A stretch of 64,000 bases of DNA, from the NCBI GenBank assembly GCA_951406725.2, contig OX597819.1:96286001-96350000 (forward strand). Direction: 5' to 3'. Below, in pieces: positions 2,406-52,058 of the stretch. Position 1 is the stretch's first letter. Each line of letters starts with the position of its first letter. A program made the position numbers and the translations under genes. The notes under the pieces were generated by a model that saw only the letters and a program-made list of their open reading frames with translations, was not told the origin of the DNA and made no database searches. This DNA comes from Octopus vulgaris. Lineage: Eukaryota.

Positions 2406-3492
2406 ATAACTATGATTAAGCTGTCAAAAATATTTTCTGATCTAGCAGACAAGTGACAAAAAGCATTCCAGCTATGACCATCACCTTTTCTTATGGGATG
2501 TAGTGTCACAAAAATTACGAGTCTTTTTGTTGGAGCGAGCTCTACAAGTTAATGTTGAAGTTATCACAATGAATATTGCAAGCTAACCACTATTCCATTG
2601 TTTCTGGTAATGGAATTTTTATAAATTTTGTAAACTACCTGCTTAATTATTTATTAGGCGGGCAAGTATTCTGCCCGAGAAATAGTCAGACAATTATAAG
2701 CTAGCTAATTCAATGAAGAGGTACATCATTTGATCGAACAATTGTATAGTCATCGTTGAAACTGACGGAGTTCTATTGAATTTGATCACTGATTCAGACA
2801 CTGCGATTCAGACACTGCGATGCACAAAATCAATTACGTTAAACTCACCAATCTGAAAGGACCTGCATGATGTTATGGGTACTGTCCCCTAATCTTTGAC
2901 TGGCAAAATGATTTGTTGTGTTTAATACATCTCCGAATTCATATCCTTCTGGTTAACTTAAACATTTATCACTGCAAGATCGATAAAATGTCTATAAAAT
3001 ACTTTGGTTAATGTATGCCACTTTACGTTTCTCACAAACTTTCTGGTTAGTTGTTATTTAAAACAATAGAGAAGAGATAGAAATCTCTCTCGTGTCGCCA
3101 TGACTAAAATCAATAATAAAATGTCTTAATTTTTGTTTTATTGAAAGCTAATAGCAGTACCCGGCATTAGCCTGGTTAATAGAAAACAACCAAGATTTTA
3201 AGTTTTGCCAGATGGCTTACTGAACAAGTGAAAAAAGACTTTTCTTGTGATTATTAGGAAAAAAGATGGAAAGCTTCATTAAATAGTAGAAAGAGAGCAA
3301 CAGTTGTTAAATTTCAAGTAAAAGTAGTTTGTATTTTATTTGTAGCAGAAATCTGATAAAGCCGAAAGTTAGGAAACAAATTCGAAGAAGGCGAGGAGAA
3401 GCGAAATTTAAAATCCCGGTGAAAACGAATTTTATGAATTTTATTCTATTTTTGATATTGAGTCTCCTTACCAATAAAAAAATGTCTGTGAA

Positions 3493-3533: not shown

Positions 3534-4416
3534 AGGAAGAATTTCATTAGAAATACTTAATTTACAGATGGATTAGCGGATTGAATGACTTATGATATTA
3601 GTTACTTATCTCTAGGTTCCGAGTTCATGTCGCACCGAAGTTGACACTTGATCTTCATCATTCTGAGATCGATCATGTATTGGGATCAAATAAATCAACA
3701 ACACTCATTCCTCCAAAAAAATTTTAAACTGGTTTTAAAATTATTTCAAAAGAAATATAGAAATCAGTTAAAATAACAGCCAAATCTCCCTCAAACTGCA
3801 ACCTTTAATCTTAAATAAAGGACACGTAAAATAATGTATTCCTACCCATGACCCTAAAAAGATAACTTATTCTCAATAGGAATGTTTTTGGTTATAGATA
3901 TTTAGCAGGTCTGCACTTGATTGTAATCCCAGAACTTGTTTGTAAACAAACGGAATTTTGGCAATTTGGTTAATGATGTAAAGCAAAAATCTAGCCTATG
4001 AACATCTTTGTCAATCACTTTCGGATTTTCGAGTGATAATAAAATTTGCTTTGGAGCATATAAAAAAGAAACCATATCTGAAAAGAAAAACAGAGCGTGA
4101 GGTGCATCTGAAAGACAAGAGAGGACAGAATATAGAATACAGTCATGTGTTCACTTCAGGTGTTATTCACTATTAGCTGATGTGGACGGCCAGACCCACC
4201 AGATGGGAAAGGTCTGCAGAGGATATGGGACACGTTTTGGCAGGTGACTCTAGAATCCATTCAATTATCTCCCTCTCTCACTTCCCTCTCCTCTGCACAC
4301 AACCGCAGAAGCTGTTCAATCAAGTCACTACTACGAAAAGAACCGTTTAACGTTCTCTTTTTTTTTTTAGACAGTCGCAACCAACACAATAATTTAGTAT
4401 AAATAGATGATATATT

Positions 4417-32322: not shown

Positions 32323-34583
32323 TCTCTTATGATAAAAGGCAGATTTTCTCTGCCAGTTCCCATGTTCCTTTTTAATACAATTTTACAATATAGAATTTCT
32401 TCAATTGGAATTTACCTATGATTCGATTGGGTCATGGCATATAAAGCTTTTTCAATTTGAGCCCCCAATTAAGCAAAAATTCGAGAAAACTCAATATTTT
32501 ACGATTTGCCTCTCTCATTTCAAGTGGTTTACTCCTGCTATTACCACCACACTTTCTCCTACTTTCTTTTTGCAAGTGCGAAACTATTAAAGTGAAAGTA
32601 TTATATAACAGGGATGAGCCATTAATAGTGGTCATCATTTTTACAAGAGGAAGATCCGCTATGGTCTTATATGCTACACTACTGGTTTTCAATTCATATT
32701 AATCAAATTAATATTCAATTTTTCACCCTTATTATGTTGGGAACACTTTCAAACCTGCCTTACATTCGAACCAGAATCTCAAAAACATTGTCCCCTTCAG
32801 CGCCAAGCTCAACTGCTCTATCCTGTCATGGAGGGTATCAGCAATGAAATCTATAACAAAACACTCATTGACGTTGAAGACAGAATTGCTAAACTGGGTG
32901 GAAATGAATTGTCGACGTATGGCCTGCCACAAGCATTCAGGTCAGGGTCAAATAGCCTTCCCACAGCTGTCATTCGTGAAACAACCTACGACACTCAAGC
33001 GCTTTCAAAGTACATTGTTGAAAATGAGCCTAAATTACTTCTGGACCAGCTGCAGGCCTACAAAACTATTCTTAACAGTGTGCGCCAACACGAGGGATGA
33101 ATCTTCTTCCTCGATGCTCCTGGAGGGACAGGAAAAACATTTATTACAAAGCTTCTCCTTGCAGAAGTTAGGTAGCATCAGGACATTGCAGTAGCTGTAG
33201 CCTCCTCTGGGATTGCAGCTACTTTGTTACCCGGTGGCAGGACAGCATACTCAACTTTTAAACTCCCTCTCAATTTAGCAGCATCCGAAATGCCTTCATG
33301 CAACATCAACAAAAGCTCAGATCAGGGACAAGTACTTAAAATGTGTTATGTAATTGTCTGGGATGAGTGCACTATGGCTCACAAGGGAGCTTTGGAAGCA
33401 TTAGATAGAGCCCTGAAAGACATCCGAGACTGTCAGGCTCCAATGGGAGGTGTAACGCTTCTGTTGTCAGGTGATTTCAGGCAAACTCTTCTTGTCATTC
33501 CGAAAGGCACTAGAGCTGATGAAGTTCAAGCATGCCTAAAGTCCTCTACCCTGTGGCATCATGTTACAATCTTTAGTCTCACCACTAACATGAGAGCTTA
33601 GCTACACGGCGACAAAATGTCCACAAAGTTTGCACAGAACATTTTGACACTTGGTGAAGGCAAAATGCCTCTCGATGCTGCAGGACAAATGGAAGTGTGG
33701 TCATTTTCTACTGTTGTTAATTCTGTAGATGACCTCAAAAACAAAGTCTTTCCCAACTTCACACAAAACTACCAAAATCACAATTGGCTGTGTGAAAGAG
33801 CAATATTAGCTCCAAAAAACGTCGCTGTTAACAAAATTAATCAACAGCTAATGCATTCTCTTCCCGGCACTATACACACTTACAAGTCTGTTGATACAAT
33901 TCCAGATATAAATGAAGTTGTGAACTATCCTCCTGAATGTCCCAATTCACTGGAGCCTCCTCGACTACCTCCACACACATTACCACTTAAAGTTGGAACT
34001 CCTGTAATGCTACTCCGCAATCTGGAACCACCAAGACTTTGCAATGGAATACGACTGGTGATAAAGAAAATGATATCACACGTTATGGAGGCGATCATTC
34101 TTTCTGGATGTGGAAAAGGTGATGACGTCCTTATTCTAAGATTTCCTCTTACTCCATCAGGAGCAGAAATTCCATTTACATTCAGAAGACTGCAATTCCC
34201 CCTTCGTGTCAGCTTTGCCATGTCCATTAACAAATCTCAGGGTCAAACCCTCTCTGTAGCTGGTCTTCTCTTGGAAGAGCCCTGCTTCTCGCATAGGCAA
34301 CTGTATGTTGGCTGCTCAAGAGTAGGAACCAAAAGAAATCTTTTTGTATATGCTCCACAAGGAAAAACAAGGAACATTGTTTACAACGAGGTGTTATAAT
34401 CTCAACAGTCAGGAGGTATATACATGATCCCCTTTTTTTTTAACAAACTTCATGTACTTTCATGTATTTATATTAATATACATATATTTGTGTGTGTGTG
34501 TGTATCCATATATATATATATATAACAGAAAATTCTAATTCTTCTATTGAATGTAACCGGGCAACGCCGGGTATCTCTGCTAG
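32323..34583 (+). mobile_element. Helitron, internally deleted (no Rep domain seen)
   Basis: Candidate 5' A|TC end (tctcttatgataaaagg); 3' hairpin ccgggcaacgccggg followed by CTAG|T at 34580-34584; encloses PIF1 helicase. Confidence 0.85.
32828..34399 (+). pseudogene. Helitron PIF1-family helicase (RepHel C-terminal part), three in-frame stops
   Basis: One frame with motifs FFLDAPGGTGKTF, ASSGIAATLLPGGRT, IVWDECTMAHK, GDFRQ, FAMSINKSQGQTL, FSHRQLYVGCSRV. Confidence 0.95.
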
Positions 34584-38512: not shown

Positions 38513-38608
38513 GGGAAGCTTTATGAAAATAAACAAAAGACGAAGGCAGGTGGAAAACAAACGAACAATTGTATTAGTATGGCGCTCAGGAAATATAAAT
38601 AAAACAAG

Positions 38609-38646
38609 TCTTTAACGTTTCGAGCCTACGCTCTTCAACAGAAAGA
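38609..38646 (-). ncRNA. Minimal type I hammerhead ribozyme motif (A6U variant) at the Neptune 3' end
   Basis: Reverse complement: tcttt-CTGTTGA-a-gagc(gtag)gctc-GAAA-cGTT-aaaga; palindromic AACGTT replaces stem III. Confidence 0.7.
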
Positions 38647-38818
38647 TACACAGAGAGAGAAAAACACAGAAAGAAGGAGAGAAAAAAAATGCGTGCAGTA
38701 GCTAACGAATCAACATGGCGATCTGATTTCGGCCAGAGGTCAAAGATCAAACATGAGACGCGAGAGCGAAATAAGGGGAGATAATAGGGTTGATAAAAGG
38801 GTTGAGGGACCAGCTAAA

Positions 38819-38879
38819 AGTGCGTGGGAGGGGTCTGGATGTGTGTATGTATAGGGTTGGTGTATGTATTAGTATGTAT

Positions 38880-38918
<39 letters not shown>

Positions 38919-39170
38919 AGAGAGTATTAGTGCGTAAGATTGGTCTGGACGTGCGTATGTATGGGGTTGGTGTATGTATTAGTATGTATTAGTATGTATT
39001 AGTACGTATTGGTATGTATAGGTATGTGTGTGTGTTTGTGTGAGAGAGTATAAGTGCGTATGCGGCGTCTGGACGTGTGTATGTATAGGGTTGGTGTAAG
39101 TATTAGTATGTACTAGTATGTATTAGTACGTATTAGTATGTATTAGTTGGTGTGTGTATTAGTATGGCAC
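38819..39170. repeat. Three ~115-bp repeats with gtattagtat subrepeats in the PLE 3' region
   Basis: agtgcgt..gtctggacgtg.gtatgtat.gggttggtgta repeated at ~38819, 38929 and 39053. Confidence 0.8.
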
Positions 39171-39471
39171 ATCATATGTGATGTGATGTGTAAAGTCATG
39201 TGGTGTAGTGAGGAGAAGAGGGGGAGGGGGAGAAGAGGGGAGAGGGGGAGAGGGGGAGGGGAGAGAAGAGGGGGAGGAGAAGGGGGAAGAGGAGAGGATG
39301 GGGGAGAAGGAAGTGGAGGAGGGGGATGAAGGAGGAAAGAGGGAGAGGGGGAGAGAGGGAGTGAGGGAGCAGAGGGAAGGGGAAGGGAAGGGGGGAGTAG
39401 GGGTGAAAGGATGAAGGACTGAAGAAGTAGGGGTCGGGGGAGAAAGGATAGGTGAGGAGGGGGAGAGGGGG

Positions 39472-41529
39472 TTAGATGAGGAGGGGGGCAGAGTTGAGAC
39501 CAAATGGCGTATAAGAGCGAAGAGAGAAGATTAATTCCTGTTCACGGCGCAAACGGGAATCCGGATGGCCTCTGTGTAAGGACAAACCGAACACAGATAG
39601 GTGTTGCAAGGAGTGACCGGTGGAGCGGAAATGGCGTGAGACCGGTGTGTCGTTCGCAAGGTGGATGTCACGAAGGTGTTCCGCGAACCGGTCAGCCAAG
39701 CGGCGTCCCGTTTGTCCGATGTACAAGGAATTGCAGAGAGAGCAAGAGATGCAATAGATAATATTGCTGGAGGTGCAGGTGAAGGAGTGGATGATGGGAT
39801 AGGGTCGATGGTGGGTGCTAGTGAGGCGGGTGGTGTTGGAGAGGTAAGGGCAAGTGCGGCAACGTGGGCGGGAGCAGGGGAACGAGCCGGGTTGGGAGGT
39901 AGGGTCAGGGAAGGAGCTATGGACCAAAAGGTCTCGAAGGTTGTGGGCTCGTTTGAAAGAGGGGAGGGGTCGGTTAGGGAAGAGGTGTGAAGTGGACGGG
40001 TCGGACTGGAGATGACGGAAAGCTCGAAGAATGGTGCGTTGGAGACGTAGGGTCGTGGGGTGGTAAGTGAGGGGAAAAGGGAGGCGGGAGACTACAGGGC
40101 GGGTTCGGGGAGAGAGAGCAGATACACGGTCCACGGACCGTGCTCTGGCAAGGGCGGTGTGGATAGTGGTGAGGGGGTATCCACGTAGGGTGAAGTGGTG
40201 AGCCATACGTTGAGACTGAGTCTCAAAGTCATGGTCGTCACTACAGAGCCTACGTAGACGGAGGAATTGGGAATAGGGGATGGAAAGCTTGGTGTGTTCT
40301 GGGTGGGAGGAAGAGAAGTTGAGGTATGAGTGTGAGTCTGTGTGTTTGTAGTGAATGGAGGTGGTAAGAGTGGAGTGAAGAATGCTAACCGAAATGTCGA
40401 GGAAGGAGACAGAGGTGTTGGAGATAGTGGAAGTGAAGTGGAGGGCTGGATGGAAAGATTGGACGAAAGAGAGGAAGGAATCTAGATGTTCGCGGGAGAG
40501 TGAGGTGGCACCGATAATGTCGTCAATATAACGACCATATAGTTCAGGAGTGGGACCAGTGAAATTAGAGAATATTTGGGCCTCAACATAGCCAACGAAC
40601 AGGTTCGCATAGTTGGGGCCCATTCGCGTTCCCATGGCCACTCCCGAGACCTGATGGTAGAACTCGCCCGCGAACGAGAAGCAGTTCAGAGTAAGGACAA
40701 GTTCGGCCAGACGAATGAGTGTGGAGGTGTCAGGTACAGGGTTAGAGCGGAGGTCAAGAAAGTGTCGAAGGGCCTGCAGTCCTTCGTGGTGAGGGATAAC
40801 AGTATAGAGGCTTTGGATGTCCATAGTAAAAAGGATTTTGGAGGAGCCGGGAGGAAAGGAGAAAGAGTTGAAAAGCCGGAGAGCATGGTTGGTATCGTGG
40901 ATGTGGGAGGGAAGAGATGCCACTAGGGGGGCAAGGACACGGTCGAGGTATTTAGAGATGAGCTCCGTGGGGCAGTTACAGGCGGAGACGATGGGGCGGC
41001 CAGGGTTGTTGGGTTTGTGGATTTTGGGGAGGAAGTAAATGGTGGGGGTACGTGGGGTTCGCACAATTAGGTTGGATGCGGTGCGGGGGAGACGGGAGGA
41101 CGAGATGAGGTCTTGGACGGTAGAGGATACCGTCTGTTGGTAGCTACGTGTGGGGTTAGAGGGCAGAGGGGAATAGAAGGAGGTGTCATTGAGTTGGCGG
41201 AAAGCCTCGGCCCTATAGAGGTCAGCGCGCCACACCACTACAGCTCCACCCTTGTCAGCCGGTTTGATGATAATGTCAGCGCGCCGTTGGAGGGAACGAA
41301 GAGCCAAGAGCTCAGCCGGGGAGATGTTGAGGCGGCGTTGGCGCCTGGAGAAGTTGAACCGCTCCAATGCACGCTGACAAGCGCCCGCGAAAAGATCCAC
41401 TGCTAGGATCTGGCCAGGGGCAGGCGTCCACGGGGATGGTCGGCGGCCCAGGCCAGTGAAGCAGTCGTCCTCTTCGTGGGGTGTGGGTGGCGAGTCGTGG
41501 TAATGCGCACCCAACCGGACACGGCGCAC
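39472..41529 (-). CDS. PLE (Neptune-type) reverse transcriptase and GIY-YIG endonuclease; this frame stays open upstream to ~41775
   Basis: IKPADKGGAVVV, YFLPKIHK..PGRPIVS, FTMDIQSLYT, QVSGVAMG, YGRYIDD, FLD, SSHPEHTKLSIPYSQFLR; linker CSRPRCRTC; NIIYCISCSLCNSLYIGQTGRRLADRFAEH..REQELI..GLN. Confidence 0.97.
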   Translation of the reverse strand: MRRVRLGAHYHDSPPTPHEEDDCFTGLGRRPSPWTPAPGQILAVDLFAGACQRALERFNFSRRQRRLNISPAELLALRSLQRRADIIIKPADKGGAVVVWRADLYRAEAFRQLNDTSFYSPLPSNPTRSYQQTVSSTVQDLISSSRLPRTASNLIVRTPRTPTIYFLPKIHKPNNPGRPIVSACNCPTELISKYLDRVLAPLVASLPSHIHDTNHALRLFNSFSFPPGSSKILFTMDIQSLYTVIPHHEGLQALRHFLDLRSNPVPDTSTLIRLAELVLTLNCFSFAGEFYHQVSGVAMGTRMGPNYANLFVGYVEAQIFSNFTGPTPELYGRYIDDIIGATSLSREHLDSFLSFVQSFHPALHFTSTISNTSVSFLDISVSILHSTLTTSIHYKHTDSHSYLNFSSSHPEHTKLSIPYSQFLRLRRLCSDDHDFETQSQRMAHHFTLRGYPLTTIHTALARARSVDRVSALSPRTRPVVSRLPFPLTYHPTTLRLQRTILRAFRHLQSDPSTSHLFPNRPLPSFKRAHNLRDLLVHSSFPDPTSQPGSFPCSRPRCRTCPYLSNTTRLTSTHHRPYPIIHSFTCTSSNIIYCISCSLCNSLYIGQTGRRLADRFAEHLRDIHLANDTPVSRHFRSTGHSLQHLSVFGLSLHRGHPDSRLRREQELIFSLRSYTPFGLNSAPLLI

Positions 41530-42416
41530 AAAGCTGTGGACATCAACTCGCGTCTGGAATTCCTTACAGGATGGAGTGAGGGGGATGAAACGCAGACCCC
41601 TACCAAGGACGGAGCGTTCAGCCGCAGAGAGGGGAAGATCGGGGGGAATGGTAACAACAGACGGAAGTGGAGAAGGGGTGGGTGGAATAGAAGTAGGAGG
41701 GGTGGTAGGTCTCGTGGAGGTCTGAGGGGGAGGGATTGTGGAGGTGTGTGGGGGTGGTTGGGCGGGGCAGTAGGGTTAGGTGTAGGTGGATGGAGCCTAA
41801 CGGGAGGGGAGAAGGGGTTGTAGGGAGGGGCAGTGGGGTTAGGTGTGGGTGGATGGAGCCTATCGGGAGGGGAGAAGGGTGGTGGAGGAGTTGGGGTAGT
41901 GGCGTCGGGTAGGGTGGAATGGAAGAGTGATTGGAGTTTACGAAGTTTGGTATCAGAAAGAAATTGATGGAAGAGTTGATTCAAATGGATAATGAAGCGT
42001 AGCGTGTTTGGAGCATAGAGAGGCGGCAGAGAGGAGAAGAAGGTGGAGAAAGCAGGAGGAAGAAGGCGGTTGATGGCATGTAGTTTGGAGAGATTGGAGC
42101 GAATGGTGGCCCGCATAAGGCGGTAAGATGTGTTGCGGAGTATGGGTAAGATGGAAGAATCCGAGTGGAGAGCAGGGTGGAAGTGGAGGCGGAAACCTTT
42201 AGGGATGAGTCGGTGATGTAGGCAGCGGCTTAGGAAAGAGACATGGCTAGAGAAGCGGGTTTTTTTAAAAAGAAGTAGAGAGAGATTAACGGACGGCTGA
42301 AGGCAATATACAGGAAGCGAACGTAGATGATCCTTCAAACGGTGATGGAGGGTGAGGAGGTAGGACCTAGGATCCGGCATGATGGGATAGCGGAAAAAAA
42401 ACGTTCGAAAAAACAA
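41403..42416 (-). CDS. N-terminal domain and Pro-rich linker of the same PLE polyprotein (joined by a -1 frameshift at ~41660-41775)
   Basis: HVSFLSRCLHHRLIPKGFR is a typical PLE N-terminal motif. The RT frame reads PSVVTIPPDLPLSAAERSVLGRGLRFIP upstream of 41529. Confidence 0.85.
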   Translation of the reverse strand: MFFRTFFFRYPIMPDPRSYLLTLHHRLKDHLRSLPVYCLQPSVNLSLLLFKKTRFSSHVSFLSRCLHHRLIPKGFRLHFHPALHSDSSILPILRNTSYRLMRATIRSNLSKLHAINRLLPPAFSTFFSSLPPLYAPNTLRFIIHLNQLFHQFLSDTKLRKLQSLFHSTLPDATTPTPPPPFSPPDRLHPPTPNPTAPPYNPFSPPVRLHPPTPNPTAPPNHPHTPPQSLPLRPPRDLPPLLLLFHPPLLHFRLLLPFPPIFPSLRLNAPSLVGVCVSSPSLHPVRNSRRELMSTALCAVSGWVRITTTRHPHPTKRTTASLAWAADHPRGRLPLARS

Positions 42417-42851
42417 AAAAAAACAAAAAACAAAAATTATCGTATGAAAAAAATAGAAGAAAAGGATAGCGAAAAAAGGGGAAAAAGCAAACGTTCAAAA
42501 AAAACAAAAAAATAATAATCGTATGAAAAAACTAGATAAGTAAGCGATAGGGGCAGAAAAGACGGGGCAAACGGAAAAGGGAAAGAAAGAAGGGAAGCAG
42601 AGAGAGGGGGATATATATACGTACATGTATGCATATGCCTCTGATTAGGTGTCGCCGTGACAACTTTCTCTGTCATGGTCAATACGACAGTCACACTTTA
42701 CACACGTAGTTCGAAGCACTGGTGTAAAAAGCAGAAGTGACCTAGAACCATAAAACTTAGTCCAGAAATACAGCAGCGGTCAAGGTCAATCTGTGCCAAG
42801 CGGTTTTACACTGTGTGCTTTATCAGTCCGGCTACTTATTGAGCAGACCTC

Positions 42852-42923: not shown

Positions 42924-43368
42924 AGTAAAAAAGGGGTAGAATTAATTAATTGTTAATCAATTCGACCAAGCAGTATTCGGTATGTAAAAGGACCATTTAC
43001 GGTATATTTGAAGTATTAATTTATAAAAATATGGTAAAGTAAAAAAATTCACTTTACCACACACCCGAACGGGTATGTTTGATTCTTAGTATTTTCAAAT
43101 CTAAATCAGAAGAAATCTCTGAGCTGATGAAGGAAAAGTGGCGTTTAACCCACAAATCCAGAAACAGGCTGTCCTCGGGTATCTTATATGGATGTGATCT
43201 TTCATTGTTTTTCCCTTATACCTATGTGAGTTATTTTCTGAGTATGCATTGTCTGGAGACTTTTATTTGCAGTTGAAGAAATAGCCAAATTTTTGGCTGC
43301 TATTTCTGAAAAGTTCGGTGTGTGGTAAAGTGAATTTTTTTACTTTACCATATTTTTATAAATTAATA

Positions 43369-43372
<4 letters not shown>
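42921..43372 (+). mobile_element. Isolated PLE pseudo-LTR-like fragment with hammerhead and ~60-bp inverted repeat, flanked by (TA)n
   Basis: IR 43011-43070 / 43313-43371 (aagtattaatttataaaaatatggtaaag..ccacacacc.gaac); hammerhead lies between the arms. Confidence 0.75.
43118..43179 (+). ncRNA. Type I hammerhead ribozyme (intact core, GUC site)
   Basis: tctgag-CTGATGA-a-gga..gtgg(cgtttaac)ccac..tcc-a-GAAA-cag-g-ct-GTC-ctcggg; cleavage predicted after 43173. Confidence 0.85.
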
Positions 43373-43404
<32 letters not shown>

Positions 43405-43434
43405 CATATGTGTGTGTGTGTGTGTGTGTGTGTG

Positions 43435-43600
43435 TACAACGTGTTTCCTTCGGTTTCCATCAACCAAATCCACTCTCAAGGCCTCGGTCTGTTCGGGGCT
43501 ATAGTAGAAAACTTGCCCATGGTGCTGCGCAATAGGACTGAACCTAAGACCATATGGTTGGGAAGTAAGTTTTTTAACCACACAACAACGCCTGTGCCTA
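43435..43600 (-). mobile_element. SINE family B, 5' half
   Basis: accaaatccactc.caaggc..ggggctatagtagaa..cttgccca..ggactgaacc. Confidence 0.8.
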
Positions 43601-44841
43601 CTTTGCAGATATTTAATTTTGAATTCCAAATAAAAGTGTATTATAATATTTAAAAAACAAACAAAGCTATCATTATTAGTATAATTACATCGATTGAGCA
43701 ACCATAGAACAATTGATACACATGTAATGGGTAAGAAAATGTTGCTTTGCTGACATGTATGTTTGCGTGAGTTTACGTTATCCACAGTGTGATATTGGGG
43801 GTGGGGGTGTCAAGAGCAAAGGTATGGAAAGTGGTCGTACATGATAGCGAATCGAAAGCTATCCGCCCTACCAAATCATAATCACATACAGGAACACACA
43901 CTCGCGCATACATATTCACGCACACACATACATACATACATACATACATACATACATACATACATACATACATACATACACACACAAATACACAAACACA
44001 GGCACACAGACACACACACACATACACTCACAGTTACGCACACATATACTTATATACATTCATGCTGTACACATAAACCGATATAAATGTATTGAAACAT
44101 ACAATGGAAGTTGACTTGATATAAAGAATATGACCATCGCTTATTAATGAGAAAGGAAATGAAAGTGACTTTTTTTCTTGCCTCAGTCGATAGTTTTCAA
44201 CTTTTATTTAAATATTTAAATATCTCTTCTCAGTTAAATGCAACGCAGAAACATGACATTTGACATTGTGTAAAAACATGTATCTCCTTCAGTTCACCAG
44301 TAAGAAAAACAACAGTTTTTGCACTATTTGCAGAAATATATTTAGTCTGGTGATGAAGATCAGTTATTTGCTGACTTCTTGAATTGTTAAGAAACCCACT
44401 GTTGAAATTGAAACTCGGTTACAAGTTGAACATTTAAAGGGATCATTATTTATGAGGTTCTTTTCCCTTGCGTCACGTTTCAATTTTGCATGTGTAATGC
44501 GATTCCCAATGCATGGTTACACTATGTATATCTTTGCTCCATGATGTCCTATCAATTTCGCTTATTTCTCATCTTTCCAAATGAATATCACTATTTTTGG
44601 ATCAGATTTAATGCATTTATCTTAACTTTGTTGCATAAAGAACATTCTCCAAAACATAATTGCCCCTAGAGTAAACTCTTATGAATTATATTCATCCTTC
44701 ATACAAAATACGAGATTTGTATCGAAAGTAACACAAAAATGGACATAGCTGTTTCATTAACTGACATAATTCATTCAAATGGGTAGAGTAACTCTTCCTC
44801 TAAAGTAACGTTTTCTCCTGGTCTTTCAATTGGGGCAAATA

Positions 44842-45210
44842 ATGGGTTTTAAGAATAAGCAACGTGTCATCGTTGATTTCTTGATGAACGAAGAGTGCAG
44901 TCTGACCGACATCCACAGATGTCTACAGGCTGTTTACGGAGATGGCACCATTGCCAAGAGCAGTGTGTACAGATGAACGAAGAAGTTTAAAGAAATAAAA
45001 AAAATAAGTATTGAGGAGTTGCCACGCACTGGGAGATCATCAACTCCGAGTACTGACATGGATCACCAGCGAGTGGACGAATTCATTTGCGCGAAGAGAC
45101 GGGTCACAATCCGTGACTATGATGTATTATGGACGAGGTAGAACACTGTAACGAAAAGTGCTTGCAAAATGGCTACCTTGGTAGTTGACACTCGATTTGA
45201 AGGAGGGACG
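44842..45210 (+). pseudogene. Mariner-type transposase N-terminal HTH fragment, truncated by the PLE insertion
   Basis: MGFKNKQRVIVDFL..TDIHRCLQAVYGDGTIAKSSVYR*TKKFK..SIEELPRTGR..RRVTIR..KVLAKWLPW*LT (WVPHEL-like motif). Confidence 0.85.
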
Positions 45211-45211
45211 A

Positions 45212-45261
45212 CAAAATCTGTTACTCTGAGTTTCTCGTTGCCGTTCGTCAGACAGTTTTTG
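45212..45261 (-). ncRNA. Type I hammerhead ribozyme (inverted copy)
   Basis: Reverse complement: caaaaactgt-CTGACGA-a-cg(gcaa)cg-a-GAAA-ctc-a-ga-GTA-acagattttg. Confidence 0.8.
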
Positions 45262-45987
45262 CTAGAATGGAACCGATATATCAATTCAATCTAGACTCTT
45301 ACAAACGCTACACCTTTAAAAAGAAATGGACTTGTTTGATTGGCCCTTTAGAAAAAAACGGTCAATCTTCGAGCGATAAACAAAAAGGTCAAAAATATAT
45401 GTATATATATATAAAAAAACTTATAAAAAATTATAAAATCCGAGGAAAAAACCTTACATTGAATAAAATACATATTGACGTTAATGAAGAAAGTATAAAT
45501 TAATTCATAGGAATTAAACCTGTTATAAATATTACACTGCAATACATATTTTTATTAAAATGTGCATATATATATCAACATGCACAAAAGGATGCGCGCC
45601 AACGCCATACATATACAGACGTATGGATATAAATCTAAATATACACATAAATGCATGTGTACATATATTCACGCAAACCATCTCGCACGCAAGTTAAAAA
45701 TCATGTATGTAGCGATTCTCATATACTGAGTAAGAGGGGGGAACGAAAGAAAGGAAGAGAGAGAAAAAGGAACGAAGGAGGGGTGGGGAAAAAACGAAAT
45801 AAGAAAAAATTATGTATACAATCTGTGTAACGGCATTATTGGCATATATGGAGACAAGTATACAAACAAGTTCGAATGGATACATACACATACAGTCGTG
45901 TATATGTGTGCTTAAGCACAAACATACTCTCACTTACACATACACAGATACGCATGCTTACAAATACATATATCGGTTCCATTCTAG

Positions 45988-46037
45988 CAAAAACTGTCTG
46001 ATGAACGGCAACGAGAAACTCAGAGTAACAGATTTTG
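45988..46037 (+). ncRNA. Type I hammerhead ribozyme (5' pseudo-LTR)
   Basis: caaaaactgt-CTGATGA-a-cg(gcaa)cg-a-GAAA-ctc-a-ga-GTA-acagattttg; GUA site at 46025-46027. Confidence 0.85.
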
Positions 46038-46202
46038 TTGAATTTTCTGCTGCTTAAAATAAAGCATATTACTCTACCACTGGTATTTGAGTACTCTTTT
46101 TTCCACCTTGTTTCACATTTATGTGTTTACTCCGGTGTAACCCGCTCCTTATAAAAGTTTGAGCGACTCTGCACAAGTAGGAAGAACAAATAGCTGAAAA
46201 AG

Positions 46203-47219
46203 ATGGAACTTTACCCGCTGGATTTTTCTCAGAAAAATATACCTATCCCTGCACGGAAACAATATCTCAAAGGTCTTATAGAGAAAACGGAAGAGTTTAT
46301 TCGAAGATTGAGATGGAAAGCCTTCTTCTTTGATAATAAACAGAAAATAGAAGGAAACAAATATGGATTTAAATCTCCCAGAAACCCGCCACCTATTCCG
46401 GAATTAGAAGCCTTCGAGAAAGACCTTTTCGAGCTTATTAGGAAAATTAAATTCCGCAAATATACCAACGTATTGCAGAAAAATATGAGTGAAAAAATTA
46501 AGGAGATTAACGACTCGAATAAGATCTTCGTTAATTCTGATAAGACAAGGAACTTATATGCACTTGATAAGGACGTTTATAAGCGCCTGATTTCGAATAG
46601 TGTCACAGACACGTACAAAAAAGACAACACGAATATATACAAAGAGGTGAACTTAGAAGCAAGAGGAATAGCTGACGATCTTAAGATTAGCGATAGGATT
46701 GAATATCTTTCACCACGACCAGCTTTTATTACTCTGAAAGACCATAAAGCCAATTTTAGTAGAAACCCCAAATGTAGATTGATAAATCCGGCTAAAACTG
46801 AGATAGGAATTATTAGCAAAAATATTTTGGACCGTATTTTAGTTAAGTTAGATAGTGAAGTAGACTTGAGAATTTGGAAGAATAGTAAGTCAGTCATAGA
46901 GTGGTTTAAATGTATTAGCTATAAGAATAATTGTAGTTTCACACAATTCGACATTATTGACTTTTACCCGTCAATATCTAGGACGTTGCTCCTAAGGGCA
47001 TTGGACTTCGCCAAACAATATGTCAACATCGATAGCTCGGAAATTGATATTATTATGCATGCGAGGAAATCGCTTCTTTTTTTCGAGGATTCCACCTGGA
47101 TTAAGAAGACTGAGGATTCTCTTTTCGATGTACCGATGGGGGCATACGACGGGGCTGAGTTATGTATGCTCATAGGAGCCTTTATTCTCCATAATCTAAA
47201 AATAGAATTCCCTTTATAG
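46203..47219 (+). CDS. Naiad-type PLE RT, N-terminal half (-1 frameshift at ~47210-47216)
   Basis: SQKNIPIP, FIRRLRWKAFFF, NSDKTRNLY, AFITLKDHK.NF..NPKCRLINPAK, FTQFDIIDFYPSI, FDVPMGAYDGAELC. Confidence 0.93.
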   Translation: MELYPLDFSQKNIPIPARKQYLKGLIEKTEEFIRRLRWKAFFFDNKQKIEGNKYGFKSPRNPPPIPELEAFEKDLFELIRKIKFRKYTNVLQKNMSEKIKEINDSNKIFVNSDKTRNLYALDKDVYKRLISNSVTDTYKKDNTNIYKEVNLEARGIADDLKISDRIEYLSPRPAFITLKDHKANFSRNPKCRLINPAKTEIGIISKNILDRILVKLDSEVDLRIWKNSKSVIEWFKCISYKNNCSFTQFDIIDFYPSISRTLLLRALDFAKQYVNIDSSEIDIIMHARKSLLFFEDSTWIKKTEDSLFDVPMGAYDGAELCMLIGAFILHNLKIEFPL

Positions 47220-48337
47220 ATGCAGGTTTATATAGGGATGACGGCCTTATAGCCACGCATAATCTAAACGGCCATGAATCAGATAGACTTAGGAAGGACC
47301 TCATAGCTTTCTTTCAAAGGATGGGCTTACGGGTTACGATAGATGCTAACCTGAATAGTGTAGATTTTTTAGACGTAAATTTTAATGTAAGATCGGATAG
47401 ATTTAAACCTTTCCGTAAGCCCAATGAAAAGCTATCGTATATTAGCAAAGATTCGAACCATCCACCAGTTATCCTTAGGAACTTAGTCAGCAATGTAGGT
47501 AGAAGAATATCTTCAATTTCTTCGGACGAGGCAGCATTCCATAATGCTGCACCTTATTACGATAGCGCATTAAAGAATAGTGGATTCTCTGAGAAGATCC
47601 AGTTCAACCAGCTTAATGCTGATAATAATGCTGCACGAAGAACTAGGACCAGGAAAGTTTTGTGGTTCAACCCGGCTTTCAATTTGGCCGTAAAGACTAA
47701 TATAGGTAAGGAATTTTTGAGATTAGTCTCTAAGCATTTTAAGCAGGGTCATAAATACTATAGGATTTTTAATAGAAGAACCCTGAAGGTTAGCTATTCT
47801 TGTTGCAGAAATTTCGCCTCTTACATTAGCCAACATAATAGGAAGCTAATTGAGATTAGACATGGTGCCGAGCCCATTAAGAAATGCAATTACAAAAACG
47901 AAAGCTCCTGTCCGTTAGAAGGGAAATGTCTAGTGAAAGGAGTAGTTTATAGAGCCAAGGTGCAAGTGGAAGGCTCATCAGAATACAAGACATACACAGG
48001 GGCTTCAGAAAATTCATTTAAAACAAGATTTTATTCTCATAAAAATTCATTTAAATACCCAGAGAATAGGAAGAGGACCAGCCTAGCAAAATATGTCTGG
48101 GAACTAAAAGAAAAGGAAGCCCCACCTTTCAACGTGACATGGAGCATTCTGGACAGGGCGGCACCATACAGGCATGGAGCATACAAAAATAATTTCAAGT
48201 GCAAACTTTGTCTATTAGAAAAAATGTACATCTTATTCAAAGACAATAATTCTTTGAATCAAAGAAGTGAGCTAATGAACTTATGTAGGCACGCGGCTAA
48301 ATTTAAAATGTCGAATATAAATGTACCATATGGATAG
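47213..48337 (+). CDS. Naiad-type PLE RT C-terminal half and GIY-YIG endonuclease
   Basis: The frame is open from ~47213: FIDAGLYRDDGL, VDFLDV, SNHPP, WFNP, KVSYSC, CPLEGKC..GVVYRAKV..YTGASENSFKTRF..H, CKLCLLEK..LNQRSEL..CRH. Confidence 0.93.
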   Translation, partial: FIDAGLYRDDGLIATHNLNGHESDRLRKDLIAFFQRMGLRVTIDANLNSVDFLDVNFNVRSDRFKPFRKPNEKLSYISKDSNHPPVILRNLVSNVGRRISSISSDEAAFHNAAPYYDSALKNSGFSEKIQFNQLNADNNAARRTRTRKVLWFNPAFNLAVKTNIGKEFLRLVSKHFKQGHKYYRIFNRRTLKVSYSCCRNFASYISQHNRKLIEIRHGAEPIKKCNYKNESSCPLEGKCLVKGVVYRAKVQVEGSSEYKTYTGASENSFKTRFYSHKNSFKYPENRKRTSLAKYVWELKEKEAPPFNVTWSILDRAAPYRHGAYKNNFKCKLCLLEKMYILFKDNNSLNQRSELMNLCRHAAKFKMSNINVPYG

Positions 48338-49403
48338 AGTATATATTTTGTATTTTTGATTTTTGAAATTTTGATTTTGACTCTTGAACGATGAGCGCTA
48401 CGATGGATTTTGTTTCCAAGCTATGCGGATCTTAATCCGTATAGCAAAGTCTTATGTTTCTACATATACATCAGGAAAAACCTTCGACCCTGTTTTCAGG
48501 TTATTGTATTGTATAGGATTACCTTGATTATTTATATTACCTTGATTATTTATAAATGATCCAAAATAGGGTGTTATATTTTATTTTATATGTCTTTCGT
48601 ATATATTTTTATTAATGCACCCATTCTTTTAAAAAAAAGCAATGTTTTTTTAAAAAAAGCAATGTTGTCAAAATTAGAATGTTGATGTAAGTATGTGTAT
48701 AGTCGAGGATATGTATTTGTAAGCATGCGTATCTGTGTATGTGTAAGTGAGAGTATGTTTGTGCTTAAGCACACATATACACGACTGTATGTGTATGTAT
48801 CCATTCGAACTTGTTTGTATACTTGTCTCCATATATGCCAATAATGCCGTTACACAGATTGTATACATAATTTTTTCTTATTTCGTTTTTTTCCCCACCC
48901 CTCCTTCGTTCCTTTTTCTCTCTCTTCCTTTCTTTCGTTCCCCCCTTACTCAGTATATGAGAATCGCTACATACATGATTTTTAACTTGCGTGCGAGATG
49001 GTTTGCGTGAATATATGTACACATGCATTTATGTGTATATTTAGATTTATATTCATACGTCTGTATATGTATGGCTTTGGCGCGCATCCTTTTGTGTATG
49101 TTGATATATATATGCACATTTTAATAAAAATATGTATTGCAGTGTAATATTTATAACAGGTTTAATTCCTATGAATTAATTTATACTTTCTTCATTAACG
49201 TCAATATGTATTTTATTCAATATGTATTTTATAATTTTTTATAAGTTTTTTTATATATATATACATATATTTTTGACCTTTTTGTTTATCGCTCGAAGAT
49301 TGACCGTTTTTTTCTAAAGGGCCAATCAAACAAGTCCATTACTTTTTAAAGGTGTAGCGTTTGTAAGAGTCTAGATTGAATTGATATATCGGTTCCATTC
49401 TAG

Positions 49404-49453
49404 CAAAAACTGTCTGATGAACGGCAACGAGAAACTCAGAGTAACAGATTTTG
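49404..49453 (+). ncRNA. Type I hammerhead ribozyme (3' pseudo-LTR)
   Basis: Identical to 45988-46037. Confidence 0.85.
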
Positions 49454-49479
49454 TTGAATTTTCTGCTGCTTAAAATAAA

Positions 49480-49552
<73 letters not shown>

Positions 49553-49621
49553 TATGTATATATGTATATATGTATGTATTCGAGACATTTACACATCGTC
49601 ATACTGATATAGACGATAACA

Positions 49622-49938
49622 TTGGAAGACTCCGCCGGTTACGACGACGAGGGTCCCAGCTGATACGATCAACGGAACAGCTTGCTCGTGAAATTAACGT
49701 GCAAATGGCTGAGCATTCCACAGACACGTGTACCCTTAACGTAGTTCTCGGGGATAATCAGCGTGACACAGAGAGTGACAAGGCTGACCCTTTGAAATAC
49801 AAGTACAACTCATTTTTGCCAGCTGAGTGGACTGGAGCAACGTGAAATAAAGTGTCTTGCTCAAGGACACAACGCGTCGCCGGGAATCGAACTCACAACC
49901 TTACGATCATGAGCCGAATGCCCTAACCACTAAGCCAC
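49622..49938 (-). mobile_element. SINE family C
   Basis: Matches 14537-14730 and the reverse complement of 30453-30750. Confidence 0.9.
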
Positions 49939-50673
49939 ATTATGGTGTAGATGTATCTCTATGTTGACTTGTAAGACTTATAATGTTTTGCAAATCGTAA
50001 AATTGCTTCACTGACTTCAACTTAATAAATAGTAAAGTGCTGACTTCTTAAGTAGATTAAGATAGACATATACGTACGATACTTCTGTTCTGATTATTAA
50101 TATATTATGCTTTGAGAGAGTTAAAACTCTTAAAAGAGTTAAAATCTTTAGAAAAATTTAATATGACGCCCTCTTTGCTTCTTTAGATACAGAGTCGCTT
50201 AACTTGCAATAAATAATAGCCTAATAGCTTTTGAGTCACCCGCCACGTCTTAAATAAGTGAAGTTCACATACAGTAATGTAGACTCTCACCCTCTCCACT
50301 CTCTTTCTCTCTCTTTCTCACACACGCGCGCGCACACACAGCATAAATAGTGGTGTAGTCCAAGCCTTTAATAGCATGATTGGTGTGTCAGAGTTGACCT
50401 CGATTAAGCAATATCAGAAGCAACGATGACAACATCTTTATATATGTCACCAATTTAAAGGTTTTCCTATGCAGCCCCTAATGGAGCTAACAGACAAATT
50501 GTTAAGGATATCCTGTTATTTACCTCATTCTCCGACACCGCAAAAGTCCTCTTACAAAACCCACAATTTGCTTTCGTCACTACGAGGCTTGAATTTGCTA
50601 ACCTTTACGATACATCTTAAATAGGTATCATATTGTTTAAAGACATACGGTATTCTTTAAATACATACATACA

Positions 50674-50733
<60 letters not shown>

Positions 50734-50734
50734 C

Positions 50735-50796
<62 letters not shown>

Positions 50797-50797
<1 letters not shown>

Positions 50798-51004
50798 CCT
50801 TTCAACTAAAGGCACAAAGACTGAAATTTGTGGGAGGGGGATAGTCGATTACATCAACTCCAGTACACAACTGGTACTCAGTTTATCGATCCCGAAAGGA
50901 TGAAAGGTAAAGTCGACCTCGGCGGAATTTGAACTTAGAACGTGGAGACAAAGTACCGCTAAGCACTTCGCCCGCGTGCTAACGATTCTGCCACCTCACC
51001 GCCT
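50797..51004 (-). mobile_element. SINE family A monomer (second tail type) between (AAT)n and (AAC)n
   Basis: aggcacaaag..gatagtcgattacatc..gtcgacctcggcggaatttgaac..gctaacgattctgccacctcaccgcc. Confidence 0.88.
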
Positions 51005-51005
51005 T

Positions 51006-51077
<72 letters not shown>

Positions 51078-51102
51078 AACAATAATAATAATAATAATAA
51101 TT

Positions 51103-51644
51103 TTCAACGATGCCCTGATGCAGTACGAGGCAGTGGCTCTAGTGGCTTCTGATCTTAACTTATTGGAAGTGTTATCATGTACATTGTTTCGTCTTGGAAT
51201 AAAAGATGGGCTACACTCTGCTCAATACTACAGATTTGATTGTCAGTTGTTTGATCTTAACCAGTTGAGCATGTCCTTTAGTGGCTGACGATATGTGCAA
51301 TTCTGAGAATGAGCAGAAGTAGTGGGGGAGCATCATAGCCATGTGTTGAGAGGGTTTCTTTGGGGTTTGAATAATTCACCTTTGGAAACATGGGTGTTTT
51401 GTTCAACATCCTTAAACAACTCTCATTCAGGGACCTTTGGAGCGAGATGGGTTACTCGACCGGAAGAAAATTCTAACTGGGCCCCACCCGCAAGGTCATG
51501 TGCTGTTAATCTTGATATGAGATCACCATGTCAAGCACATATGGTTGTGATGCATGTGCCTCGTGTACCCTTATCAGACGGGTAAACTGGGCTTCGTAAA
51601 TTTACCCCAGTGTCACTTTGATGGCATGCACTGCTCCCTCACTC

Positions 51645-51645
<1 letters not shown>
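51103..51645 (+). mobile_element. Unclassified insertion ending in (AAT)n, possibly the 3' UTR of a non-LTR element
   Basis: Complex, higher-GC block bounded by (AAT)n on both sides. Confidence 0.4.
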
Positions 51646-51669
<24 letters not shown>

Positions 51670-51675
<6 letters not shown>

Positions 51676-52058
51676 GTTGCATGCCCCTTTCACCCATGAA
51701 TAGTGGCGAAAGGGAGGCGAAAAGATAGATAAATACAGTACGAATTAGCCCGGCTATGGAAAACGAAGAAGGTGAATATAATGCCAATTATTGTTGAGTC
51801 CTTGGGAACAGTATAAGAAGGTATCAAGGGGAATATAGAGGAAATTGGAATAAAGTGCCCAGTAGAACTGGTACAAAAGGTTTGCCTTCTTGGCATAGCC
51901 AGAAGAATCAGGAAAGTATTAGATAGTCGAAAAGAATGGATAGCATGGTAACGTAGGCTGCAGGTAGCAAACCCGCTATACATTTAAGACTCCAAGACCT
52001 CCGACAAAATCTGCGATAAAGAGCTACAACAACAACAACAACAACAACAATAATAATA
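51670..52058 (+). mobile_element. R4/Dong-clade non-LTR retrotransposon 3' fragment (restriction-like endonuclease domain)
   Basis: INVACPF..KIDKY..ELARLWKTKKVNIMPIIVESLGTV..IGIKCPVELVQKVCLLGIARRIRKVLD; (AAC)n(AAT)n tail; preceded by (AAT)n. Confidence 0.8.

Follow-up and report, generated by a model that had tools for sequence, protein, structure and literature searches.

Penelope-like elements (PLEs) carry hammerhead ribozymes in their pseudo-long terminal repeats (pseudo-LTRs). As described in PMC4209133 (Cervera and De la Pena 2014), some of these motifs form pairs about 3 kb apart around the open reading frame (ORF) and others lie 100–700 bp apart on opposite strands. Their stem III is palindromic, a dimer is needed for cleavage and low activity was found only in multimers. 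In the same paper, a model was proposed in which the RNA is excised, ligated into a circle and copied; the dimer and circle ideas are repeated in the review PMC6765202. In PMC8557442, the Hydra clade of PLEs is defined by a C-terminal endonuclease without CCHH, the motifs RWK and DKT, a CxCx5C linker, CxxC and CxH motifs, insertion into (TA)n and canonical hammerheads. Naiads are defined there by an N-terminal GIY-YIG endonuclease, DKA, CCHH and the absence of canonical hammerheads. In vitro work on the PAc Poseidon element of Anolis showed that the tail is bounded by two start sites of reverse transcriptase (RT) and that cleavage and extension take place on both strands of the target (Frangieh et al. 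2024, PMC11167929). According to the same source, ribozyme mutants of this element still insert, uncut RNA is the main substrate in vitro and no reads end at the cut. Here, a PLE copy with three hammerhead motifs from Octopus vulgaris is analyzed (positions 45,211–49,480 of the window, which is the whole stretch of 64,000 nucleotides, contig OX597819.1, positions 96,286,001–96,350,000; features in Table 1). This locus probably belongs to an abundant family of Hydra-clade PLEs with recent activity, as a frameshifted copy in which the three motifs were laid down by two-strand priming from a single source element, with a template that was uncut or rejoined.

Assignment of the Element to the Hydra Clade

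A sequence-only reading of the window had called the element Naiad-type, and the protein contradicts this. The RT motifs precede the endonuclease, and alignment with 10 homologs indicated a C-terminal GIY-YIG domain without CCHH; Naiads have the endonuclease at the N-terminus and no canonical hammerheads. The first part of the ORF contains RRLRWK and SDKT (RWK was found in 98 and DKT in 118 of 120 homologs), and CKLCLLEK (CxxC) and LCRH (CxH) are present around the conserved E and N. The C-terminal endonuclease, these four motifs and the (TA)n target place the element in the Hydra clade and not among the Naiads. The element also combines insertion into (TA)n with a canonical hammerhead, as in the Hydra clade, and its pseudo-LTRs consist of a partial tandem and an inverted 5' copy, with a one-sided tail, as in endonuclease-containing (EN+) PLEs. 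By eye, the protein is close to the N-terminal part of Hydra-1_Obim and not to Naiad_Ovul (PMC8557442, File S4). A homolog search yielded 1,050 proteins at E ≤ 1e-20 among 7,999 scored, nearly all of them unnamed, and the best was 58% identical. Judging from motifs and by-eye comparison, the element is probably a Hydra-clade PLE.

EN+ PLEs have a single ORF, which in the family copy L043 encodes 710 aa with the motifs FD..YRDD and GVVY..YTG. In the window copy, the ORF starts at 46203 and is broken by a 1-base deletion near 47212; the extra base at ~47212 is carried by contigs of three of the four sequencing runs. The ORF noted in the sequence-only reading is thus not whole.

Comparison with the Hydra-clade entries described in PMC8557442 (e.g., Hydra-1_Obim, Hydra-2_Amil, Penelope-3_HM and Penelope-13_HM) showed that the motifs, the (TA)n target and the canonical hammerhead are shared with the window family. 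In File S2, stem I of Hydra-2_aMil (ctgt/acag) agrees with that of the window family and its stem III differs only slightly, and Penelope-3_HM has an identical actc-a-gagt with the same 1-nt loop III. Penelope-13_HM resembles the window locus in its 5'-truncated inverted copy and in having a hammerhead on each strand. A U-U mismatch at the foot of stem II is common among the published Hydra hammerheads, compared with A-A here. However, Hydra-1_Obim belongs to a different family, with another hammerhead and a length of 2507 bp. The unit of the window family is ~3.35–3.45 kb long, compared with less than 3 kb in the Hydra clade, and its stem II has 2 bp, compared with 3–7 bp in the listed Hydra rows. 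Its tail is 72 nt long instead of the usual 30–40.

Abundance of the Family in the Genome

In the 2.8-Gb genome, the 24-nt ribozyme core is matched exactly at 3,935 places and the reversed control at none, so that chance is not an issue; 99 further cores differ at position 11.1. Two sets of loci were fetched, namely 38 chosen by pseudo-LTR and tail and 35 chosen by the 5' end of the ORF. Open frames of at least 718 codons were found in 16 of the 35 ORF-picked loci, and eight of the 35 carry the antisense motif together with two sense motifs around the ORF. In 18 of the ORF-picked loci the sense-to-sense spacing ranges from 3337 to 3453, and the spacing of 3416 is therefore merely the unit length of the window copy. 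By eye, 31 head-to-head pairs were counted among the first 100 of the 3,935 core matches. All this indicates that the family is abundant and recently active. It was not found by name in the Hydra sheet of File S1 of PMC8557442. An octopus repeat annotation reports 31 recently active Penelope-like families, with no clade or ribozyme detail in the part concerned (PMC13282606), and the family may already be present in a repeat library.

Several variants of the layout were also seen. Six of the 31 head-to-head pairs (e.g., G000:C1:4679300-4679371) meet, by eye, at the centre of a CTAG palindrome at the base of stem I; these are tiny elements made of two ribozyme-bearing ends and reflect either recurrent truncation or a mini-family. 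One subfamily is marked by linked changes in stem I, at position 11.1 (G, U or C) and farther towards the 3' end, and some of its copies also have U replaced by C at core position 4 (12 of 239 copies compared). Longer arrays include L043 (G000:C12:43651200-43661199) with 2.1 head-to-tail units and, among the head-to-head loci, G000:C1:64214611-64222049 and L108 with four ribozyme motifs. The loci L033 and L034 (G000:C16, ~270 kb apart) are near-identical insertions with the same flank, which points to a local or assembly duplicate.

Insertion Ends and Proposed Origin of the Layout

The family has two fixed 3' ends, which lie 37 and ~109 nt beyond the cut site (72 nt apart), and (TA)n follows each of them. 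One tailed and one tail-less end were found at 32 of 35 head-to-head loci; at the other three, one end was unclassed, and no locus had two ends alike. Note that 22 of these 35 loci came from the set selected for at least one tail, and there only the second end is informative. Two internal start sites with both target strands cut and extended, as described for PAc Poseidon in PMC11167929, fit this two-ended layout. That element also shares two start sites bounding the tail, an AT-rich target and a hammerhead upstream of the starts. It belongs to another clade, however, and showed no strand difference in start site in vitro, in contrast to the pairing of tailed and tail-less ends in the window family.

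Within a locus, differences were counted at 129 of 22,791 columns between inverted arms and at 100 of 15,928 between direct partial copies, whereas the median divergence between loci is mostly 2–4%. Arms of a locus have 869 shared minor alleles compared with 30 discordant common ones (121 arms from 66 loci; L034 was left out as a near-duplicate of L033). Since arms are far closer within a locus than between loci, both arms and the partial tandem would come from one source in one event. Copying of the arms from two different source elements was rejected because long comparisons show within-locus closeness (L057 excepted), and insertion beside an older copy was rejected because partial and full copies share alleles. 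Tandem source loci that leave shared differences in their daughters were rejected as well: the sole cluster, L090/L097, proved to be alignment overshoot into (TA)n.

At the window locus, 739 of 745 paired bases are identical between 45211–45971 and 48709–49454, with 17 gap bases, and the direct repeat (45968–46064 and 49384–49480) is identical at 97 of 97 positions with an offset of 3416. The inverted copy, the 97-bp direct pseudo-LTR and the (TA)n at 49481–49550 had all been recognized in the sequence-only reading, as had the recent origin of a PLE with pseudo-LTR hammerheads, with which the family comparison agrees. The three hammerhead motifs are probably copies of one terminal-repeat motif. 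Both strands of the cut (TA)n target would have been primed on RNA of a single source element. The first cDNA would have started at the tail-less end and run for 3513 nt, which is longer than one unit and would leave the partial tandem; the second probably started at the tailed end and stopped after less than 900 nt. The two cDNAs would then have been joined head-to-head via a 4-nt microhomology. Since the right end in the window is tail-less, the left arm should have borne a tail and (TA)n. It stops ~98 nt short of the tailed end, against a decayed repeat, and was probably clipped later by deletion.

The two arms differ by six substitutions and three indels, with private changes on each side. 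The left arm has a private C where T is found in all other arms compared (27 of 27, 32 of 32 and 50 of 50), and the right arm has a private T where 26 of 27 other arms have G, as well as a 14-bp gap. Divergence between the arms (0.76%) is slightly above the pooled value for inverted pairs of the family (0.57%), and the closest long relatives among the family loci compared are ~98% identical. The window copy thus appears to be recent, not among the youngest and at present non-coding.

Hammerhead Motifs and Their Predicted Activity

A motif scan found hammerhead cores at 45998 (+), 49414 (+) and 45251 (−) and no further ones in the window. The two sense motifs bracket the ORF, with GUA sites ending at 46027 and 49443, 3416 nt apart, and the third motif is antisense, as the sequence-only reading had stated. 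The same reading had placed all three inside the inverted repeat; only two of them lie in the arms, the 5' sense motif being situated just inward of the left arm. A 22-nt stretch of the endonuclease coding region (48078–48099) resembles the 5' strand of stem I (82%).

The core CUGANGA...GAAA...UH of type I hammerheads is present together with stems I and III. Stem I has 4+7 bp around an A-A mismatch, and stem III (ACUC-A-GAGU) is quasi-palindromic. Stem II, with its GCAA loop, comprises only 2 bp above an A-A mismatch, a feature that the sequence-only reading had overlooked. Neither a paired 10.1–11.1 nor a stem II of the usual length was found: the 3,935 cores have A-A over 2 bp. Position 11.1 of the 99 further cores is G in 76, U in 18 and C in five, so the pairing U occurs in only 18 of 4,034 cores. 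The motifs of Cervera and De la Pena described in PMC4209133 have the same spacing, orientations and palindromic stem III, but their stem II is 7–8 bp long with a conserved G10.1–C11.1. A covariance-model search, which had been proposed as a check, was negative: the Rfam scan of 43000–52000 gave no hammerhead family at E ≤ 1, and the ribozyme assignment therefore rests on inspection of the motif and stems and not on a covariance model.

The active monomer fold was calculated at −6.3 kcal/mol and the minimum at −12.2 kcal/mol, i.e., the active fold is 5.9 kcal/mol above the minimum, whereas the intermolecular stem III (dimer helix) is predicted at −7.4 kcal/mol; the program leaves tertiary contacts out of these energies. 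Local fold stability was not significant (z −1.67; 14 of 200 shuffles were equally good). According to these predictions, the motifs would likely cut slowly and in pairs only, and a dimer requirement for cleavage is plausible. The energies agree with the earlier suggestion that the 1-nt loop of stem III points to a dimer, an idea that had already been published.

The variant core CUGACGA had been taken as the sole difference between the ribozyme copies, at position N7. The variant is real, and the antisense copy is also cut off 11 nt past the GUA. CUGACGA was found in one of 68 motifs (the 38-locus set and the window) and in none of 50 other arms. As a sign of selection it was rejected, being a singleton private mutation.

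In the predicted fold of 45200–46100, each base of 45985–46039 is paired with the inverted arm. This arm would bury the 5' ribozyme and is also complementary to the 3' one, which makes long double-stranded RNA (dsRNA) and double cleavage mutually exclusive on one transcript. The combination of a ~750-bp dsRNA with double cleavage, as proposed earlier, is thus not consistent with the predicted folding. In read-through RNA the ribozymes are predicted to be buried by the inverted arm, and a long dsRNA would be possible only through host read-through.

The Ribozyme Cut Site and the RNA Template

Because cDNA starts downstream of the cut site, each copy that bears a core has passed this site. At least 3,935 copies did so, and ~66 end within three bases of it (99 pattern matches, with 20 of 30 inspected being true truncations). 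Equal-design patterns up- and downstream were compared with the cut site; the estimates come from 30 loci scripted per pattern and the first 100 matches by eye, and they are rough because the patterns catch different subfamilies. In window-unit positions, truncations per position number ~16 at 32–44 (244 matches, 25 of 30 true), ~10 at 49–61 (226 matches, 18 of 30 true), ~22 at 59–61, which is the cut site, ~32 at 59–71 in two subfamilies (701 matches, 18 of 30 true; peak at 65–66) and ~17 at 74–85 in tailed arms only (295 matches, 21 of 30 true). The peak falls on a T run 5 nt beyond the cut, and the downstream density is similar or higher. Compared with these patterns, no spike of 5' truncations was found at the cut. 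Likewise, 1-base ligation scars at the cut site showed no excess over control AA sites: by eye, five deletions and two insertions were seen among the 99 matches at the cut, compared with two deletions in the first 100 of 244 and four in the first 100 of 295 matches at the control sites.

The absence of a truncation spike and of a scar excess suggests that the site in the template was intact during reverse transcription, i.e., uncut or rejoined. Most likely, the weak ribozyme, with its 2-bp stem II and dimer-dependent stem III, would cut slowly, and uncut RNA longer than one unit would be copied. Cutting would chiefly free or retire transcripts and would not be needed for insertion.

In one further locus, L096 (G000:C5:73538665-73548664), both arms share an internal deletion that joins the ORF straight to the bases after the ribozyme cut. 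A 9-nt microhomology between the ORF and the pseudo-LTR explains this joint equally well.

Evaluation of the Proposed Origin and of Other Explanations

A number of observations weigh against the proposed origin. The core is nearly invariant among the family loci examined, which argues that the ribozyme matters. Truncations at the cut site have about twice the density of the 10 nt upstream (26 in three positions and 44 in 10; by eye, first 100 of 226). The partial tandems of 1.9–2.1 units, with spread starts and no difference recurring between loci, are explained as well or better by a circular template. None of the sequencing runs was recorded as RNA; the ORF is covered by contigs of two runs that may be RNA, and transcript ends and strand cannot be read from contigs. 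The left junction (45210/45211) is bridged by no piece of the four runs and is without independent support. As regards the clade, Pfam gave no match for either ORF half or for an intact copy, and the CxCx5C linker, present in 112 of 120 homologs, is altered in most family copies, unlike in the Hydra clade. Among 49 family copies read by motif, the second Cys of the linker is kept in 14 and replaced by Phe in 35, and the window copy has Tyr there; the linker thus appears to be present in the family and lost in the lineage of the window copy.

The strongest alternative concerns intact source elements. Here, the two sense ribozymes would pair via stem III and excise a unit-length RNA, and the ligated circle would be copied round and round from two start sites. 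This is the hypothesis published in 2014 (PMC4209133), and the release-and-circularise idea of the sequence-only reading is therefore not new. It agrees with the predicted dimer helix (−7.4 kcal/mol) and with longer-than-unit copies whose joints are seamless (1.9 units in L109 and 2.1 in L043); the two units of L043 differ at 3–4 of ~3,450 columns (99.9% identical). Partial and full copies share alleles and are thus not insertions beside older copies, and as both 3' ends lie 37 and 109 nt past the cut, cut RNA could be copied further only if rejoined. On the other hand, the cut site shows neither a run-off spike nor an excess of 1-base scars, and the 2-bp stem II lies over A-A, with the pairing U in only 18 of 4,034 cores. 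In addition, insertion of the anole Poseidon was normal in ribozyme mutants, and its cut site coincided with neither the beginning nor the end of any RNA-seq read (PMC11167929). A circular template is therefore a possibility that we regard as rather unlikely, while the truncation and tandem data do not separate it from uncut RNA.

A fuller version, in which dimeric cleavage of a hammerhead with a 2-bp stem II yields a 3.4-kb circular RNA as the replication template of the family and a dimeric enzyme primes two strands at two fixed sites from one source, is doubtful. If true, the circle and the dimeric enzyme would explain the rule of one tail per insertion, the allele-sharing arms and the seamless copies of up to 2.1 units. 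The non-LTR retrozymes of animals (10.64898/2026.07.22.740005) share type I hammerheads, a link to PLE pseudo-LTRs and a proposed rolling-circle spread. As described there, they are small non-coding tandem arrays, whereas the window element encodes its own protein and the circle here is hypothetical.

It is improbable that the long copies arose by RT jumping between or within RNAs at short microhomologies, without tandem sources or circles. Such jumps are frequent in short copies, as seen in the stem I skips of L124 and L129 and the ORF-to-pseudo-LTR joint in both arms of L096. However, in both fetched sets the long copies have internal pseudo-LTR joints without seams or shifts of register, whereas jumps elsewhere leave deletions.

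The inverted arm could also be an assembly artefact, a concern that the sequence-only reading had itself raised, or a later duplication of the locus, with read-through yielding a functional dsRNA of ~750 bp. A unitig of the DNA run X1 agrees with the left flank up to 45212, beyond which it has 244 different letters, and the left junction is not bridged; this unitig is a hint of another allele at the left junction in that individual. The six substitutions and three indels, which include private changes on both arms, would not result from collapse or duplication of a read. The same layout is seen at many loci, and no promoter or transcript spanning the locus was found for a functional dsRNA; we consider this explanation very improbable.

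Finally, a Naiad with kept or regained canonical hammerheads can practically be dismissed: Naiads share with the window family partial tandems, the inverted 5' copy, the one-sided tail and a microsatellite bias (Craig et al. 2021), and the ~3.4-kb length and (TA)n preference overlap with theirs, but the C-terminal endonuclease refutes this by domain order (theirs is N-terminal), Naiads have a CxC domain, CCHH and no canonical hammerhead as described there, the motif here is DKT and not DKA, CCHH is absent and the protein matches Hydra entries by eye.

Features of the Locus and Other Elements in the Window

Table 1. Annotated features of the PLE locus and its flanks (window positions)
Feature	Position	Strand	Remarks
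Left flank, decayed repeat	44720..45210	+	mariner-transposase-like by translation (presumed)
Inverted arm, 5'-truncated copy of the element 3' region	45211..45971	−	outer end 26 nt short of the family tail-less 3' end, without (TA)n
Hammerhead motif in antisense (core CUGACGA at 45251; GUA up to 45222)	45211..45265	−	cut off 11 nt past GUA
5' pseudo-LTR, 97 bp, 5'-truncated end of the partial tandem	45968..46064	+	97/97 identical to 49384–49480
ATAT, 4-nt microhomology where the two arms meet head-to-head	45968..45971		arm end 45971, direct repeat start 45968
Type I hammerhead motif, predicted cut after 46027	45984..46040	+	sequence, folds, comparison with Hydra hammerheads (PMC8557442, File S2)
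72-nt tail between the two fixed 3' ends of the family (46064- and ~46136-equivalents)	46065..46136	+	here internal, continues into the 5' untranslated region
ORF part 1: N-terminal domain (RWK, DKT) and first RT half	46203..47219	+	stops after the 1-base deletion
ORF part 2: YRDD RT, thumb, Cys linker, C-terminal GIY-YIG-type endonuclease (GVVY..YTG, CxxC, CxH, no CCHH)	47195..48337	+	motifs compared with PMC8557442, section 11
3' untranslated region, AT-rich	48338..49383	+	14-bp deletion, absent from the inverted arm
3' pseudo-LTR, hammerhead core 49414, predicted cut after 49443	49384..49480	+	ends at the family tail-less 3' end
(TA)n target microsatellite	49481..49550		same flank at most of the 38 + 35 family loci fetched

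The left-flank repeat (44720–45210) is probably mariner-transposase-like, judging from its translation, and no continuation on the right side was found within the window. SINEs in the flanks appear to be of octopus type. Behind 46069 and 46136, loose contig ends of the four sequencing runs lead into (TA)n.

Three other elements were observed upstream. About 3 kb from the locus (~38600–42700, minus strand) lies a second PLE, Neptune-like by motif (DKG, Cx4CxxC linker and CCHH, labelled from the descriptions in PMC8557442), with RVT_1 at E 6e-8, a weak C-terminal GIY-YIG and overlapping frames of 363 and 767 codons. Broken frames of a PIF1-type helicase at 32618–34396 (+) are Helitron-like (Pif1_2B_dom, E 1.5e-14). 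A perfect 55-bp inverted repeat, 43011–43065 and 43317–43371 (251 nt apart), adjoins (TA)n and resembles a miniature inverted-repeat transposable element.

Significance of the Locus and the Family

The window locus alone matters little, since it is a broken copy and its layout of three ribozymes in tandem plus inverted arrangement is already published for PLEs (Cervera and De la Pena 2014; Craig et al. 2021). The literature search yielded no paper that treats a stem II of 2 bp or the points of truncation at ribozyme sites of PLEs; subscription journals, including Lunse et al. 2017, were mostly outside its range. The family extends the Hydra-clade hammerheads to a stem II of 2 bp. It is a natural data set for the role of hammerheads in EN+ PLEs, which is described as open in PMC8557442. 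Judging from its copies, the ribozyme site is passed by RT in nearly all cases, and start sites differ between the two strands. If the family did replicate on a circular RNA with a dimeric enzyme, the role of PLE hammerheads could be tested directly on it, given its many intact ORFs and ~4,000 recent copies.

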